The position numbers and the translations under genes are program-made. Source: a virus (lineage: Duplodnaviria; Heunggongvirae; Uroviricota; Caudoviricetes). From it: a stretch of 44,004 nucleotides of DNA. Shown here piece by piece: positions 23,271 to 29,276 of the stretch; positions within the stretch are counted from its first letter, which is position 1, and each line of letters starts with the position of its first letter. The stretch lies in the IMG/VR virus record IMGVR_UViG_2579778670_000004; one strand, given 5' to 3'. Below the pieces are notes generated by a model, which was not told where the DNA came from, did not search any database, and saw only the letters and a list, made by a program, of their open reading frames with translations.

Positions 23271-23383
23271 TATTTTATGGCATTTGTCATAACGCCAAAT
23301 ACAATGAGGGAATAATGAACAATTATATTCACGTCGTGAATTTTATTAAACGGTTTTATAGGGGATTAAACCGTTTATGGTCA

Positions 23384-24025
23384 TTATTTATCACTCCTGT
23401 AAATTGGAATTAACCATTTTCTAATCGTCGACGCTGCAGGTGGGTCAGAGTATTTCGCCACAAAAATACCGGATATGTATTGCACGCCACGCGATAATGG
23501 CGCTGTCGGGTTTTCAGTAAAAAAACGATCAGCCAGTTCAATGGCTTCGCTTTTTAATCTGTGCTGTGGTCGTCCTCCGCCCTTTGTTCCCAGGTATCGC
23601 GCCAGTTGTTTGAAACGGTAGGCGATGATTAACGGTCGCATCATCATATTGAAAAAATCGCGGGCATCGTTGTCAGCGCCTTGCGCTATCAACAGTGCAA
23701 AAAACAGATACGGGATTATGTACACTTCAGGAGATATACGAACCCGTTCACAAGTTGGTGGAGCCAACTCAATAAGTAAGTCAGCCAGCGGATTCCCCTT
23801 TTCTCCACGTTTGTAATAGCGATACAGCGGCCCGATATCAAGTTCACTCACGTCGATTTCAGGATGCCCGGCAACGACTGTACGTATCTCTTCTGCCAGA
23901 GCGTCAAATATTGCCCCGGTCCGTTCAAGATAGAGCCTCCGGGTCGAACCGCGATCATCCAACGCCCGTAACATATCTAACCGGCTAACGAAAGTTTCAG
24001 GCCAGTCCTCATAGAAGGTTTTCAT
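23384..24025 (-). CDS. Hypothetical cargo protein (unknown function)
   Basis: Start placed at the Met with GAGGT Shine-Dalgarno (MKTFYEDW...), 213 aa; no recognisable motif. Followed on its strand by a 9-bp inverted repeat AAACGGTTT/AAACCGTTT at about 23,342..23,370. Confidence 0.45.
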   Translation of the reverse strand: MKTFYEDWPETFVSRLDMLRALDDRGSTRRLYLERTGAIFDALAEEIRTVVAGHPEIDVSELDIGPLYRYYKRGEKGNPLADLLIELAPPTCERVRISPEVYIIPYLFFALLIAQGADNDARDFFNMMMRPLIIAYRFKQLARYLGTKGGGRPQHRLKSEAIELADRFFTENPTAPLSRGVQYISGIFVAKYSDPPAASTIRKWLIPIYRSDK

Positions 24026-24268
24026 AATTACCTCGAATAATAAAAACTGCACTATTTGCACAATTTATTATTCGTTTTCACGCCGCTGAGTTCTATAAAA
24101 AAGAAAAAACCTCCGAGGCAGGGTTTTGTTATGGCTCGTTAAATCATCATCCAACTTTTTAGACTGAACGGTGATACTTGCAAATATTTGAAAATATGGG
24201 CTGGAACCCTATCTTATGATGTGCCTGGTAATTTATATTGTTGGGTCTTTATATCATGAGGAATCACT

Positions 24269-24502
24269 ATGGGTACGTTAGGCAACCAGCCGTGCAGAAG
24301 TCGTTATGAGTTCGATGATTTTAATTTAGCCAATCGAGCTGCGGCTCTTACTAAGTTAGCAAAAGAAACTGGTGTATCGGTGGATACCTTAATCAAACTT
24401 GAAATTGCTATGCAACTGAATCGGCTCAACTCCATCCTTATCGAAAACGGTGACAAGATGGACGAGAATCTGGCAGGTATTGGCGAGATACTGCAGAAGT
24501 GA
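24269..24502 (+). CDS. Small protein, possible degenerate HTH regulator
   Basis: 77-aa ORF with GAGGA Shine-Dalgarno; segment LAKETGVSVDTLIKLE resembles an XRE-type helix-turn-helix; followed by hairpin CCCCTC-TTCT-GAGGGG. Confidence 0.4.
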   Translation: MGTLGNQPCRSRYEFDDFNLANRAAALTKLAKETGVSVDTLIKLEIAMQLNRLNSILIENGDKMDENLAGIGEILQK

Positions 24503-24809
24503 GAGTAGCCCCTCTTCTGAGGGGTTGCACATTTAAAATATTAAGGGCGGTCTTCTTCACGTACACAGTCACCTGGTCGAATCGTTCACGCATACTGAGT
24601 ACAAAAAATCTCAACGATAAGATCAGGTTAGACCTGTATTTTCCAGAAACATATAGACGCCTAAAAAAACACTAAACTCATGATTATCATGTATGTTTTT
24701 ACTGGAAACATTGAACCATCCACAATACAGCGTAAAAAGCAAGCAATTCACAAGATTTTAAAGTGATTTATCTGGAAGACTTTACTACTAACAGTTAATA
24801 TCGTACCAG

Positions 24810-24828
24810 AAGTGCAGAATTTGCACTT
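24810..24828. promoter_or_regulatory. 19-bp perfect palindrome AAGTGCAGAATTTGCACTT (candidate operator)
   Basis: Perfect inverted repeat about 75 bp upstream of the metallopeptidase start codon. Confidence 0.4.
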
Positions 24829-24900
24829 TTACAGGAATGTGGTACGGAACATGCTGTCTATATTTCAACCAATAATCGTAATGCAGTAACTGGAGGAGCT

Positions 24901-25389
24901 ATGGCTACCAACCCAAGAGAGCACGCCCGGCGAGTGCTGGACACGTTCTGGTGCGGGCGTGGTTTCCCTGTTGATCCAGCGAAAATTGCTCACGACATGG
25001 GATTAGATGTTTTTATTACCGATCTTCCTGGGAAAGTTTCTGGCGCACTGATTAAACAAAAAGATCAAGATCCAGCGATCTTTCTAAACAGTGATGACAA
25101 CAAAGTTCGTCAACGTTTTTCATGTGGGCATGAGTTGGGGCATTACATCGCCCGGCAAGCATCGCATAGCGATGAATATGAGTACGTTGATTTACGTGGC
25201 GAAACCGCAAGCGCCGGAACGCATCCTGATGAAATTTTTGCAAACAAGTTCGCAGCAGAACTTCTGATGCCGGTAGATGAGGTCAGAAAACTGCACGCTG
25301 ACGGTCAACCAAGTTATATAATGGCGCATTATTTTGGCGTATCTGACGATGCGATGACTTATCGTTTAAAGAACTTGAGGTTGGGGTAA
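24901..25389 (+). CDS. ImmA/IrrE-family zinc metallopeptidase (HExxH)
   Basis: 162-aa ORF with HELGHY motif and overall ImmA/IrrE (COG2856-type) pattern; GGAGGA Shine-Dalgarno. Confidence 0.7.
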   Translation: MATNPREHARRVLDTFWCGRGFPVDPAKIAHDMGLDVFITDLPGKVSGALIKQKDQDPAIFLNSDDNKVRQRFSCGHELGHYIARQASHSDEYEYVDLRGETASAGTHPDEIFANKFAAELLMPVDEVRKLHADGQPSYIMAHYFGVSDDAMTYRLKNLRLG

Positions 25390-25398
25390 CGCTTTAAA

Positions 25399-26004
25399 AT
25401 GCCATCGGATGACGATTTTAACAGCCGTTTCAAACAGGAAGTAGCACGCAGACTGAAGGATTCCCTCAACCTACACCGTCAGTTAGCAGAAGAGGTTGAG
25501 CCGGAGGACGATGAAACTCCGGTTCAGTCTCCTGACGAAGCTTCACCTCAGCCAAAGGTTTCGCACGCCCCCAAAAAAACGGCTGTCCGTATTCGCGGAA
25601 TAGCCAGAAAAAGAGCTGCCGAAGCTCGCAAAATGGCTGTAGCTGCGTCTAGCAAAAGAATTCCAACTGCTACACCCTCTCAACAAGTCACCCGTACTGA
25701 GAGTAAAATCTTGACCGAGTTCACATCTGTGAAACAGGTGAATTCACTTGATACCGAGCATGAGCGCAAACAACTCAACAACAAAGATTTTGAAGCAGAA
25801 ATCGCTCTAAAAAAACGATACGGGAAATGGTTCCTGATTATCCTTGCTTTCCAACTTCTGATAATGAATGGTGTATTTATTGCCGACGGCGCAGGTAAGC
25901 TGGAATTTGAGGATTTAACACTACAGTTGTACATGGGCGGTACTTTGACAGAGGTATTCGGCCTCGTGCTGGTCGTGACAAAATACCTTTTTAAACGCAA
26001 GTAA
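25399..26004 (+). CDS. Membrane protein with charged N-terminal region and two C-terminal transmembrane helices
   Basis: 201-aa ORF 9 bp after the peptidase stop; about 140 aa Lys/Arg/Glu-rich, then FLIILAFQLLIMNGVFIA and TLTEVFGLVLVVTKYLF helices. Confidence 0.55.
   Translation: MPSDDDFNSRFKQEVARRLKDSLNLHRQLAEEVEPEDDETPVQSPDEASPQPKVSHAPKKTAVRIRGIARKRAAEARKMAVAASSKRIPTATPSQQVTRTESKILTEFTSVKQVNSLDTEHERKQLNNKDFEAEIALKKRYGKWFLIILAFQLLIMNGVFIADGAGKLEFEDLTLQLYMGGTLTEVFGLVLVVTKYLFKRK
25933..26004 (+). repeat. Direct repeat copy 1 (3' end of membrane-protein gene)
   Basis: About 72 bp, roughly 90 percent identical to 29354..29425. Confidence 0.7.
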
Positions 26005-26248
26005 CTCTCTCGGTCCAACAGTCTTTCGAAGGCCCTGATCAAAGGGCCTTGATAAATTAGCAGTGCGTTGAAAACAGATAGTTATTCCCATCAGTTCCAA
26101 CGTAATACACATCAAAAAAATCACCATTCTTTTGCTCTAACGTCAACACCTACCCTTAAAAAAATAATTCTCCAAGAATGAGAAAGTTATTGTGTGTATT
26201 AGATAAGATATGAGCTGACACATCTATGGCGTGGAGCCAAATTTAATA

Positions 26249-26282
26249 TGACAGTCCGCTCTGTGCCATAAGCGGACTGTCA
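26249..26282. other. Perfect 11-bp inverted repeat (TGACAGTCCGC / GCGGACTGTCA) with 12-nt loop; possible terminator or protein-binding site
   Basis: Seen directly in sequence, in the intergenic space downstream of both convergent genes. Confidence 0.4.
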
Positions 26283-26466
26283 ATAAACAGATTCACTTGT
26301 AAATCTTGAAGCTATACATATTTACTTTCAATGATAAATAAAAGAACTATCCAAAAATCACTGAGAGCATATTTTAACTAACCCTCCGCTACTATTAACA
26401 TAAATTTCACCCAACCATAATTAAATTGATACATATAGCAACTTACCTTGATACGAATCATCTGGG

Positions 26467-27165
26467 TTATATTTTTCCATATTTTTTTCCGTCAAATCGA
26501 ATCATGCCAGGATCAAGAAAATTAATTAAATCGATTAACGCGTGCTGTATTCTGATTAGCCTTTCTTTATAAATTCCGATATCTCTTGTCATATTTATCA
26601 CTTCATTGTTTAAATCTAAAAAAAATGGCTCATTGATAAAGCAATTTTCCTTTGTGAAACTGCCGTAACCTATGCAATCAAATCCAGTATCTGTTGATAT
26701 CAGCATCTTTTCTGCAATAGCTCTCTGCTCTCCTATGAAAAACATAAAATACTGACCAAAGACGTCTGTTTGGATTAATGAGTTAATATTGTTCTGTAAT
26801 CTAATAAACTCCCTCATTTTTTTATTTTTTTCTAGGCTAAGGTATTGAATGTCTATGCGGGCAGCTTCTGTCCATGCAAAAAACTGGGAAAAAAGAAAAA
26901 CAGTATTGTTGATAACATAATCTTGTTGGCGCTTATTCCCATTATGATAAAACTCTTCAATGAACCCCAATTCTAATATATTATAAATACGGCTTTGTAA
27001 GTCTGAAGCTGAGCGAATTAACGGTTCAATATAGTACTGATGTTTTCTCCTTACATCCAGTGATTCATTGAGCTTGTTTATTCTATTCTGATTATAAGTA
27101 GATATAGCAATAGAGATTATAGCTATTGCACCACTAATAAAGCTTGAAATTAATGCCGTACCCAT
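26467..27165 (-). CDS. Hypothetical protein with N-terminal transmembrane anchor (unknown function, AT-rich cargo)
   Basis: 232-aa ORF; N-terminal hydrophobic helix (ALISSFISGAIAIISIAIS); low-GC codon usage unlike the phage backbone. Confidence 0.5.
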   Translation of the reverse strand: MGTALISSFISGAIAIISIAISTYNQNRINKLNESLDVRRKHQYYIEPLIRSASDLQSRIYNILELGFIEEFYHNGNKRQQDYVINNTVFLFSQFFAWTEAARIDIQYLSLEKNKKMREFIRLQNNINSLIQTDVFGQYFMFFIGEQRAIAEKMLISTDTGFDCIGYGSFTKENCFINEPFFLDLNNEVINMTRDIGIYKERLIRIQHALIDLINFLDPGMIRFDGKKYGKI

Positions 27166-28352
27166 CTAAAAGTCCTTTGATTCTTGCTTGGTTAACAAAA
27201 TGACATAATTTTATTTAATGCCATAACAACTTAACAATATATCATAATATGATTATTATGGTGTAGCTTGTCGCATCTACGCTCCATTACAAACAGATGT
27301 AAGATATAACCTATATGTTTTAGCCAGCAAATTCGAAAGCATTCAAAGTAGTCTCATCGAACTCTCGAAACCCTATGTCTTCGGGTATAAAATATTTAAA
27401 TCCATTTGCATAATATCGACTCATGTTTATTATATTCTCCCCATTCACCATTAAGATTTGACATTATTTTCAACAATCGGTTATTGCAAGATTGAAATAT
27501 ATTTTTACTTGACACAATATTCCATGTAGCCCAGCGATTCGACTTACCCCCAACTATACGGACAATCTAAATTAAATCGATGATTTTTTGATACATTCTC
27601 CTCTCTCCATTACTTTATGTTTTTGTTCCCCAAAAATACCTTGCTCTCTAAAAAATAATTGTTCTTTAAGTTCAAAATCGAGATCTACATGAGCGTTAGA
27701 TACAAAGCTAATATGTTGAAATGTCTTTCCCCCCCCATAACGGCATTGTTATCTAAACTATGTTACACAAATATAATATTACCCTTTCAACGTAATCCAA
27801 GAATAAGATTAATGCCATTATATATATCATAAATATGATATTTTGTATATTTTTATCATTTAGCCTTGATTGTACTAGGTGTACTCTCAACGAAGTAGGG
27901 AAAGTCTGTTCCTCGCTCACAGCTGCCCTTCAGTAAGCGAAAAAATGCCTACTCGGTGCCATATACAGCCATTGTTATTAACAGCAGGGAATAATTCAAA
28001 ACTGAAATTAAATATCTACCTTTTACAGTAGAAATAGTTCCTCCAGGACACTATCCATTGCCGGGCACAATCACTCGGGGTATAACGATATAAAATATGT
28101 TCATGATAGTGCAGGTTCGTATATTAAGTTCAGCAGCGAAAACATGCCTTACAGGTTTCCGGTTTTGGGAGCGTCGTTACAGGATCCTGCGCATACCGTT
28201 CCCATCTGTTGAATTAAAGGTTTCACAGCCTTTGCCGATATCACCTTTTACCTTACCTGTGATGCGTTCAGTGCTCAGCGTTGTTTACTGTAGCTCTCGG
28301 GACTGATTACAGACCGCGTCTTAAAAACCAATCCTTACTCTAAAGGGAATTC

Positions 28353-29276
28353 ATGAGATTAAAATACTCAGTACTCTTACTCGCCATTGCCCTTACAGGC
28401 TGTGATAACAAAAAAGATGAGATCGGTTGTTCTTCGGAAATAACCCAGTCAGCTCTCATGGATTTATTAAAAAAATCTGCTTATGAAGGACTCTCTGAAC
28501 AGGTCGATAAATACCCTGATGTCACTAATCAGACCAAACGAAGCACACTGGACAAGATCAAACTAGCCATCTCTGAGATCTCCACAACATCAAGTGACAC
28601 GGGCAGCACAATGAAAACTTGTGAAGGGACCGTGACGATGACTCTATCTGCGAACGAGTACGTCCAGCTTTCAGATGCTTACAGAAAGAATTTTAATCGT
28701 AATCTCGATAAGCAAATGGAAAGCCTGTTTTTGGAGAACAACGCAAACGCCTTTTCAAAACGTATCACCTACACCGTGCAGGCGACCGACGATCAGAAAA
28801 ACGTTTTTGTAAAAACCTCTACTGATAATCCGATATCAGTGGGCGCCGCTTTACTGACATCGCTTTCCATTATCACCCCGATCGTTGAGCAGCAGAAAAT
28901 CCAGCAGGCTAAGGATGCCCAACAGAGTCAAATTGAAGCGGAACAACAGGTGCAACTCAGGGCGCAAGAACAGGCTAAGTATGAGGCGGAGAAGCAAATA
29001 GAGAGACAGGCACAACTTCAGCCGCAAAAAGCTGACAACCTTGATCAGTCCCGAATGGCATTTGCGAATGCCGACTCTGATTTGAGTACCGTCTGGAGCA
29101 AGTTAACCCCGGCGAAGAAAAAAGATTTGCTGCCTTCTCAGCGTCAGTGGATCAAAACTAAGGATGCTATGTGCGGTAAAGTTTCAATGCAGGGAACAGA
29201 TGCTGAAGTCAAGAAAATGGTCGACTGCCAGACGCAAATGACCCTTTCAAGAATCGCTTTCCTCAGAAACCAATAA
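28353..29276 (+). CDS. Lipoprotein with C-terminal DUF1311 (LprI-like) domain
   Basis: 307-aa ORF; signal peptide plus lipobox LTGC; Gln/Glu-rich coiled-coil linker; C-terminal pattern QRQWIKTKDAMC...DCQTQMTLSRIAFL fits the DUF1311 signature as remembered. Confidence 0.55.
   Translation: MRLKYSVLLLAIALTGCDNKKDEIGCSSEITQSALMDLLKKSAYEGLSEQVDKYPDVTNQTKRSTLDKIKLAISEISTTSSDTGSTMKTCEGTVTMTLSANEYVQLSDAYRKNFNRNLDKQMESLFLENNANAFSKRITYTVQATDDQKNVFVKTSTDNPISVGAALLTSLSIITPIVEQQKIQQAKDAQQSQIEAEQQVQLRAQEQAKYEAEKQIERQAQLQPQKADNLDQSRMAFANADSDLSTVWSKLTPAKKKDLLPSQRQWIKTKDAMCGKVSMQGTDAEVKKMVDCQTQMTLSRIAFLRNQ

Follow-up and report, generated by a model that had tools for sequence, protein, structure and literature searches.

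A membrane-anchored prophage cargo protein remotely homologous to RTasTM is a candidate single-gene phage-defence protein

The IMG/VR virus record IMGVR_UViG_2579778670_000004, a 44,004-nt stretch of caudoviricete DNA referred to below as the window, represents a prophage; it encodes a contractile tail and an integrase, and its early genes resemble those of lambda. On its minus strand, positions 26467–27165 form an ATG-initiated coding sequence (CDS) for a 232-residue membrane-anchored protein (WP_000536231) that carries the NCBI family name 'lysogenic protein' and belongs to PHROG 5606. The gene, referred to here as the target, is part of a foreign cargo block flanked by DUF1367/DUF1364/Q genes on one side and LprI-family and anti-repressor genes on the other. 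A previous interpretation made from the letters of the window alone (the sequence-only reading) had likened its product to single-gene abortive-infection or exclusion proteins. Our analysis links the protein to a component of an experimentally validated defence system and makes it a good candidate for a phage-defence protein encoded by a single gene.

The open reading frame (ORF) has the same position as in the sequence-only reading, and it is well beyond what chance produces: in 500 shuffles of the 2.4-kb region, the longest ORF had 133 codons and the mean was 64. Moreover, the ratio of nonsynonymous to synonymous substitution rates (dN/dS) against four diverged copies is 0.10–0.25. The gene is therefore real and under purifying selection. 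Its AT-biased codon usage, already remarked on, is borne out by a GC content of 32.0% (30.5% at third codon positions), compared with 48.3% for the window and 45–52% for neighbouring genes, which places the target in a GC trough. A Shine–Dalgarno-like AAGGA, read from the sequence, precedes the ATG by 7 nt (27173–27177, minus strand). About 45 bp before the ATG, there is a match to the sigma-70 promoter consensus (TTGTTA-18-TAAAAT; 27208–27237, minus strand), which counts as weak evidence because promoter-like sites in this AT-rich region are not enriched over shuffles. An intrinsic-terminator-like hairpin with a 13-bp stem, 7 GC pairs and a T-rich tail is found approximately 185 nt past the stop codon (26249–26282, minus strand), within the 'left inverted repeat' annotated in the record of phage P2-EC58.

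The proposal that a single N-terminal transmembrane (TM) helix is followed by a soluble domain of some 200 residues agrees well with our results. The only strongly hydrophobic window in the protein covers residues ~3–23 (Kyte–Doolittle 2.16; nucleotides 27097–27159, minus strand), and in an AlphaFold2 (AF2) model this segment is helical. The model, derived from a 53-sequence alignment (mean pLDDT 86, pTM 0.79), depicts residues 3–65 as one long helix comprising the TM segment and a stalk, beyond which comes a bundle of helices that includes a small β-hairpin. One N-terminal TM window is present in 222 of 231 full-length family members, with a median start at residue 5. In these members, no Lys or Arg precedes the TM segment and a median of three occur within the 15 residues after it. 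According to the positive-inside rule, this pattern predicts an N-out/C-in topology, and the conserved helical domain (residues ~44–232; 26470–27036, minus strand), delineated by the family alignment, AF2 and hhalign, is thus predicted to be cytoplasmic.

The TM helix is conserved in its own right and is rich in small residues (positions 8, 11, 12, 15, 18, 19 and 22), which form a face consisting of S11, G/A12, A15, S/A18, A/G19 and A/T/S22, with Ala at position 15 in 51 of 53 sequences. This glycine-zipper-like face suggests a surface for TM–TM packing. Within the remainder of the protein, residues invariant in the family alignment include P48, L49, D55-L-Q-S-R59, N62, Y83, Q94, W98, E100, R103, F143, G145-E-Q-R-A149, Q207 and L217-D-P219. 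A HEPN-like or other catalytic motif was rejected on inspection of the alignment, in which no His is invariant and the invariant positions follow no known motif pattern. Structural comparison identified neither a solved relative of the domain nor a pore-former fold. The target also had no match among SLATT Pfam families at E-values up to 1; SLATT proteins have two or three TM helices, as opposed to exactly one in 220 of the 231 target family members.

Searches against Pfam, NCBIfam and PDB sequences returned no match. To that extent, the earlier statement that the protein has no recognisable motif was accurate; a weak match in PADLOC, described below, proved to be a true remote homology. PHROG 5606, annotated as being of unknown function, matches the target over its full length (E = 7.1e-163, residues 1–232 of 232). 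The family also includes ORF1 of the P2-EC58 Z region (CAD54907), which shares 91% amino acid identity with the target. We traced the name 'lysogenic protein' to GenBank entry AJ512683, 'Bacteriophage P2-EC58 proviral Z-region, ORF1'; the name implies no tested function. A word-indexed search retrieved 290 homologues, and the invariant motifs are all present. At 50% identity and E-values up to 0.001, the family comprises 1912 representative clusters from Proteobacteria, Acidobacteriota, Cyanobacteria, Actinomycetota, Bacteroidota and other taxa. In E. coli JJ2434 (L099), the protein is annotated as a 247-residue 'lysogenic protein' (9422–10165; WP_225104467); relative to the window, the matching stretch is short by 1 nt, and an apparent frame shift near the 3′ end extends the ORF by 15 codons.

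The single lead to a characterized protein came from PADLOC, where residues 71–204 of the target produced a weak partial match to the RTasTM profile (22.4 bits, E = 1.8e-5). The reference point for RTasTM is the validated 'RT-nitrilase + 1TM' system from the P4 hotspot of E. coli E101, a UG5-large system in which a reverse transcriptase (RT) is accompanied by a TM protein ('cluster 1858'); the sequence of the latter, pFR76 protein 2, is given in Table S2A of Rousset et al. 2022 (PMC9122126). PADLOC profiles unequivocally assign pFR76 protein 2 to RTasTM (E = 5e-164 and 1e-122; 405–541 bits). When the alignment of the target family was compared with pFR76 protein 2 using hhalign, the probability was 95.9% (E = 6.5e-9), and with an alignment of 17 RTasTM homologues it was 96.3% (E = 1.8e-9) over 142 columns, corresponding to target residues 44–185. 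Four other members of the target family also match RTasTM, with E-values of 1e-5 to 1e-9. The similarity is evident at the level of individual residues. Invariant positions coincide at R59/R83, Y83/Y98, T88/T103, Q94/Q109, W98/W113, R103/R118, E146-Q147/E160-Q161, I150-G151/I164-G165, C164/C174 and Y167/Y177 (target/RTasTM). Moreover, the AF2 model of RTasTM (pLDDT 86) has the same order of structural elements as that of the target over the whole length, including the hairpin bearing the conserved Cys and Tyr. By these profile and model comparisons, homology between the target family and RTasTM is established at the superfamily level. The sequence-only reading had named clear homology to a non-defence family as an outcome that would speak against its analogy; the only homology we could detect is to a component of a defence system.

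The two families resemble each other in further respects. RTasTM has 229 residues and the target 232, both possess one N-terminal TM helix with small residues followed by the same series of helices and a small β-hairpin, and both are carried by phage or satellite hotspots. On the other hand, identity is only ~20–25%, and target residues D55, Q57, S58, N62, E100, R148 and D218-P219 are not conserved in RTasTM. RTasTM is restricted to Enterobacterales (29 clusters), whereas the target family has ~1900 clusters in many phyla. Even in its most divergent members, the RTasTM gene is located directly 3′ of a gene for a ~960-residue RT, its start overlapping the RT stop codon. We found neither an RT (RVT) nor a nitrilase (CN_hydrolase) in the window, where the largest ORF is a 653-residue terminase. 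Both this lack of an adjacent RT gene and a profile score of 22 bits, far below the 405–541 bits of true members, led us to reject the target as a member of the RTasTM clade.

Might the target instead depend on a UG5 RT encoded elsewhere in the genome? Among 5426 complete E. coli genomes, E101-type RT is present in 38 and the target module in 453, and the accessions listed for the two do not overlap. At least 92% of E. coli module carriers are devoid of E101-type RT, and dependence in trans on an RT of this type was accordingly rejected. In 80 loci from diverse genomes, no RT was found among the neighbours of target family members, and no neighbour family recurs in more than seven loci. Taken together with the low RTasTM score, these observations indicate that the target family is solo. 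The RT-linked clade, in turn, looks like a specialised offshoot, and in enterobacterial UG5 RT-nitrilase systems a divergent superfamily member was apparently taken on as the TM partner.

The immediate surroundings of the target show how it travels. The gene is part of a portable 1.7-kb module (26211–27934, a unit shared across genomes) consisting of a fossil gene, the intact TM gene and the terminator. A copy that is 99.5% identical occupies a different island in E. coli AVS0747, beside genes for dynamin-family, RdcB-family and patatin-like proteins. Another, 86.7% identical, is found in the Z region of P2-EC58, where it replaces fun(Z), and a third, 74% identical, in an AlpA/DUF4238 island (L090). 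The right edge of the module coincides with the cargo junction in sister prophages. In the sister prophage of E. coli TUM13936 (L103), the flanks are kept and the slot holds PD-T4-3 (E = 5.7e-138) together with an HNH protein; in that of ECO21 (L104), the same flanks enclose a SMEK-domain protein, a methyltransferase and several unknown genes. The region ~23300–28350, from the DUF1367/DUF1364/Q genes to the LprI and anti-repressor genes, can be described as a variable cargo hotspot of this prophage family. The segment 26096–26282, which includes the terminator hairpin, is 88% identical at the cargo junction of the ECO21 prophage, where the target gene is missing, and may represent a recombination-prone junction common to different cargo units. 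A transposon-like cassette with terminal inverted repeats was rejected, as the window copy is not bordered by any long inverted repeat; the 'repeats' annotated in P2-EC58 share only ~16–22 nt, the left one being mainly the terminator hairpin.

The 760 bp upstream of the target contain no intact ORF, and most of this stretch is filled by a pseudogene remnant (27320–27765, minus strand) with frameshifts and stops. The remnant derives from an unrelated family of ~151-residue proteins with PD-(D/E)xK-like motifs. In the 74%-identical copy, the corresponding DNA holds two longer ORFs with the PD-(D/E)xK-like motifs 'HRFDLG' and 'VECKSHRW'. In the window, segments of these ORFs are spread over three frames and interrupted by stops, which is why we consider the region a fossil. 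Compared with P2-EC58, identity is 67–82% in the upstream DNA and 92–98% in the target CDS. The reading frame of the target has been kept while the adjacent gene decayed. A 43-residue ORF at 27320–27451 was rejected as a real gene, because mismatches are distributed evenly over codon positions and P2-EC58 has an in-frame stop; it is the tail of the pseudogene. Rfam had no match in the 760 bp (the best, with E = 0.94, lies inside the CDS on the other strand), and a non-coding RNA or riboswitch was rejected on these grounds. The prophage small RNA svsR (PMC12803456) was likewise dismissed as an explanation of the non-coding stretch, since svsR lies in cI and is unrelated. We also considered the fossil as a lost functional partner of the target. 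However, intact members of the ~151-residue family are not adjacent to members of the TM family, and upstream homology disappears in distant copies; thus, it is not a partner gene. The ~151-residue family has no Pfam domain, comprises more than 1300 clusters and retains ~60% identity across Gamma- and Betaproteobacteria. An intact E. coli homologue is encoded beside UvrD-helicase and Cap4-nuclease genes, and the family may itself represent an uncharacterised defence-island gene.

We next consider the genomic contexts of relatives. A Providencia relative resides in a P2-like prophage and adjoins a tail-fibre-assembly gene; another follows a P2-type integrase and stands beside an AAA_15/DUF4435 pair. 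Others are found beside SIR2-HerA, among toxin–antitoxin (TA) modules and in an integrative and conjugative element. Strong matches to defence profiles account for ~8–9 of the 147 genes immediately flanking family members in the 80 diverse loci, and include a type I restriction endonuclease, HerA, JukB, PDC-S14, PDC-M37B, PbeA, DolB and mad2. For comparison, the proportion with a known defence gene no more than 10 genes away is 2% for E. coli genes and 17% for defence genes already known. Flanking defence genes are thus commoner than the E. coli background, although the two figures come from different methods with no matched control, and the comparison is supportive only. At the level of loci, ~10% of the 80 have a defence-profile gene directly adjacent (again with no matched control), and placement in mobile or defence regions is strong for the close clade, with several distant clades adjoining housekeeping genes.

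How much does the homology to RTasTM tell us about mechanism? The two genes were validated as a system by Rousset et al. 2022, who refer to the TM protein as an 'effector', but a separate deletion was not found in the text (PMC9122126). The RT-nitrilase + 1TM system was active at room temperature only. In Mestre et al. 2022, the TM protein is stated to be necessary, and a TM partner is present in 31 of 299 UG5-large loci (PMC9226505). Yet a UG5-large system with no TM protein at all still defends. DRT1 also works in the absence of its TM partner Drt1b, for which the role of a gated channel has been speculated (PMC13275509). The homology therefore provides a defence context for the target, but not a mechanism. 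Drt1b, the 'cluster 85' TM protein encoded next to ~18% of DRT1/UG1 genes, is a facultative single-TM partner of an RT-nitrilase system, and in the speculation of the DRT1 authors it is a channel that the RT product would gate, in the manner of Hailong (PMC13275509). The target matched no other defence-associated RT (DRT) profile in PADLOC, and no sequence link to Drt1b was detected, although the two sequences were not compared directly.

Considering all of these data, the target is probably a defence or exclusion gene of some kind. As to the specific activity, we tentatively favour a self-contained membrane sensor–effector for phage defence, carried as prophage cargo (a moron) and probably acting by membrane damage. 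According to this model, the single N-terminal TM helix would tether the conserved cytoplasmic helical domain to the inner membrane, and the small-residue face of the helix would promote oligomerisation through TM–TM contacts. The cytoplasmic domain would sense an infection cue, and activation would then re-pack the TM helices, producing a membrane lesion by which infection is aborted or blocked. The role in defence, the detection of infection, the oligomerisation of the helices and the damage to the membrane are all inferred, and the data do not distinguish abortive infection from exclusion. Csx28, the TM effectors of CBASS and Pycsar, SLATT proteins and Hailong HalA, which likewise combine a TM segment with a cytoplasmic regulatory domain, serve as mechanistic models only. 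The analogy drawn in the sequence-only reading has thus gained the homology to RTasTM, the solo hotspot cargo and the slot shared with PD-T4-3, the main caution being distant members located beside housekeeping genes.

Those members, together with several other observations, weigh against a defence role. In one lineage, the gene is inside a carboxyltransferase–amidohydrolase–biotin carboxylase (MCC-like) cluster. The corresponding subclade (L046, L048, L051, L055, L062 and L068, from metagenome-assembled genomes labelled Heliomicrobium/Blastocatellia) retains the TM segment, and its genes lie between amidohydrolase and biotin-carboxylase genes on the same strand with tight spacing. Family genes also adjoin hemB in Acidobacteriaceae and ychF in cyanobacteria, one close relative sits between aminotransferase and Asp/Arg-hydroxylase genes, and another is a single-gene islet between ytjB and serB. 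Moreover, a homologue was detected in only one of 50,697 phage records and in two Streptomyces plasmids. The housekeeping contexts and the rarity in phage records therefore keep a non-defence role alive. The protein would then be an accessory membrane protein carried along by mobile elements, with a role in, for example, envelope stress or signalling, or in controlling a membrane process. Pfam and NCBIfam searches revealed no defence-specific domain, and the fold is a generic helical bundle like that of many sensor domains, both of which fit such a role. However, the homology to a defence component, the patchy accessory distribution in E. coli (453 of 5426 genomes), the repeated placement in defence hotspots with the PD-T4-3 swap in the same slot and the frequency of defence-profile neighbours above background all point the other way, and we regard a non-defence role as rather unlikely.

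Alternatively, the target might bring about superinfection exclusion with no death of the cell. Exclusion proteins of prophages that cross the membrane once are known to interfere with DNA entry or with inner-membrane host factors, and the target, itself a predicted single-pass inner-membrane protein, could similarly hinder entry or an inner-membrane host factor used by incoming phages. As a prophage moron, it also comes with a promoter-like site and a terminator of its own, and relatives occupy the Z/fun position of P2, where fun(Z) blocks T5. Indeed, relatives of the target share a niche with the P2 lysogenic-conversion genes (fun(Z), tin and old) and with the systems of P2/P4 hotspots, likewise single genes with their own promoters, but the P2 genes are related to the target neither in sequence nor in fold. 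PD-T4-3 (PADLOC PDLC04031) is a comparable case: this single-gene GIY-YIG defence protein is encoded at the corresponding cargo position of the lambdoid TUM13936 prophage, to the left of the LprI-family gene, but it is an unrelated soluble nuclease, and the link to the target is only positional. With only ~2 residues predicted outside the cytoplasm and a conserved domain of ~190 residues inside, the target would be an odd design for an entry block at the periplasmic face. Furthermore, its homologue RTasTM works with a cytoplasmic RT-nitrilase, and the family is widespread in chromosomes of many phyla, far beyond prophages. Overall, exclusion of this kind seems unlikely.

The self-contained sensor–effector that we favour may also be contrasted with a membrane-tethered adaptor or sensor that causes no membrane damage of its own and depends on another protein as effector, whether encoded in trans or fused to it. 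Such an adaptor would bring a second protein to the membrane or activate it there, as may happen with RT-nitrilase. The constant coupling of RTasTM to its RT gene is in line with such a function, and so are several fusions. In two representatives of 557 and 622 residues (P0128 and P0130), the family domain is followed by a C-terminal trypsin-fold protease-like region with a weak NAL1_N match. As read from the sequences, the SNHV, DAAV and GDSGS motifs are intact in P0130 and degenerate in P0128 (SNSV, GDVGS). One more family member is fused to a LuxR-type helix–turn–helix domain. These fusions suggest that the conserved domain, tethered to the membrane, can regulate an output domain joined to it or act as its sensor. 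Fusions are rare, however, among the 150 best representatives, the 80 loci revealed no conserved neighbour, the great majority of E. coli carriers are without E101-type RT, and the gene moves between unrelated elements as a single intact ORF. We accordingly consider such an adaptor improbable. Least convincing is the toxin of an addiction or TA module that stabilises the prophage, its antitoxin being encoded in the 760 bp before the gene. Toxicity does occur among membrane proteins, and E. coli-type copies always move with this DNA. The latter, however, is a pseudogene remnant from an unrelated family, in which frameshifts and stops have accumulated and which shows no codon-position bias or Rfam match. 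It is not kept beyond E. coli-type copies, and intact members of the ~151-residue family are not paired with the TM family, leaving very little room for this scenario.

If the target indeed defends alone, as the sensor–effector model would have it, it would constitute a compact single-gene system of 232 residues, frequent in prophages of the pandemic E. coli ST131 type (453 of 5426 complete genomes) and represented in many phyla. It would also provide an RT-free handle on an open question in the DRT field, the role of the TM partner in RT-nitrilase systems. The broader version of this idea is that the solo family is a new and widespread immune module encoded by one gene, whose polypeptide detects infection and also damages the membrane, and that the UG5 TM partner is a captured, specialised offshoot of it. 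We view this as possible, though less so than the narrower claim for the target itself; if true, the DRT 'effector' would have an autonomous ancestral activity that is merely gated by the RT-nitrilase. The invariants shared with RTasTM (R59, Y83, T88, Q94, W98, R103, E146-Q147, C164 and Y167) are direct targets for mutagenesis. No accession of the target was found in the literature searched, and neither the supplements of Rousset 2022 nor those of DefensePredictor contain its sequence; one 2025 study of E. coli prophage defence lay outside the search, so an earlier validation is possible. As far as we have seen, the link between the solo family and RTasTM, the size of the family and its solo status have not been described.

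The hotspot between the LprI/anti-repressor block and the nin/Q block of E. coli prophages could be mined for further systems. In the window, its cargo includes a gene on the plus strand (24901–25389) for an ImmA/IrrE M78 metallopeptidase (Pfam E = 7.7e-18; PADLOC CapP-like E = 2.4e-25). After a gap of 10 nt comes a gene (25399–26004, plus strand) for a 201-residue protein of PHROG 5346 (unknown function), whose N-terminal half is disordered and charged and whose C-terminal end is hydrophobic. The pair could form a separate protease-regulated module. At the edge of the hotspot, positions 28353–29276 (plus strand) encode a predicted lipoprotein of 307 residues (PHROG 5094) with a Gln/Glu-rich coiled middle and a C-terminal LprI (lysozyme-inhibitor-like) domain, and this gene is kept at the hotspot edge in sister prophages. 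Two other cargo ORFs, both of unknown function, were noted: one of 225 residues on the minus strand (23384–24061; PHROG 5215) and one of 77 residues on the plus strand (24269–24502; PHROG 5550, WP_000536919), the latter being kept in the ECO21 sister prophage.
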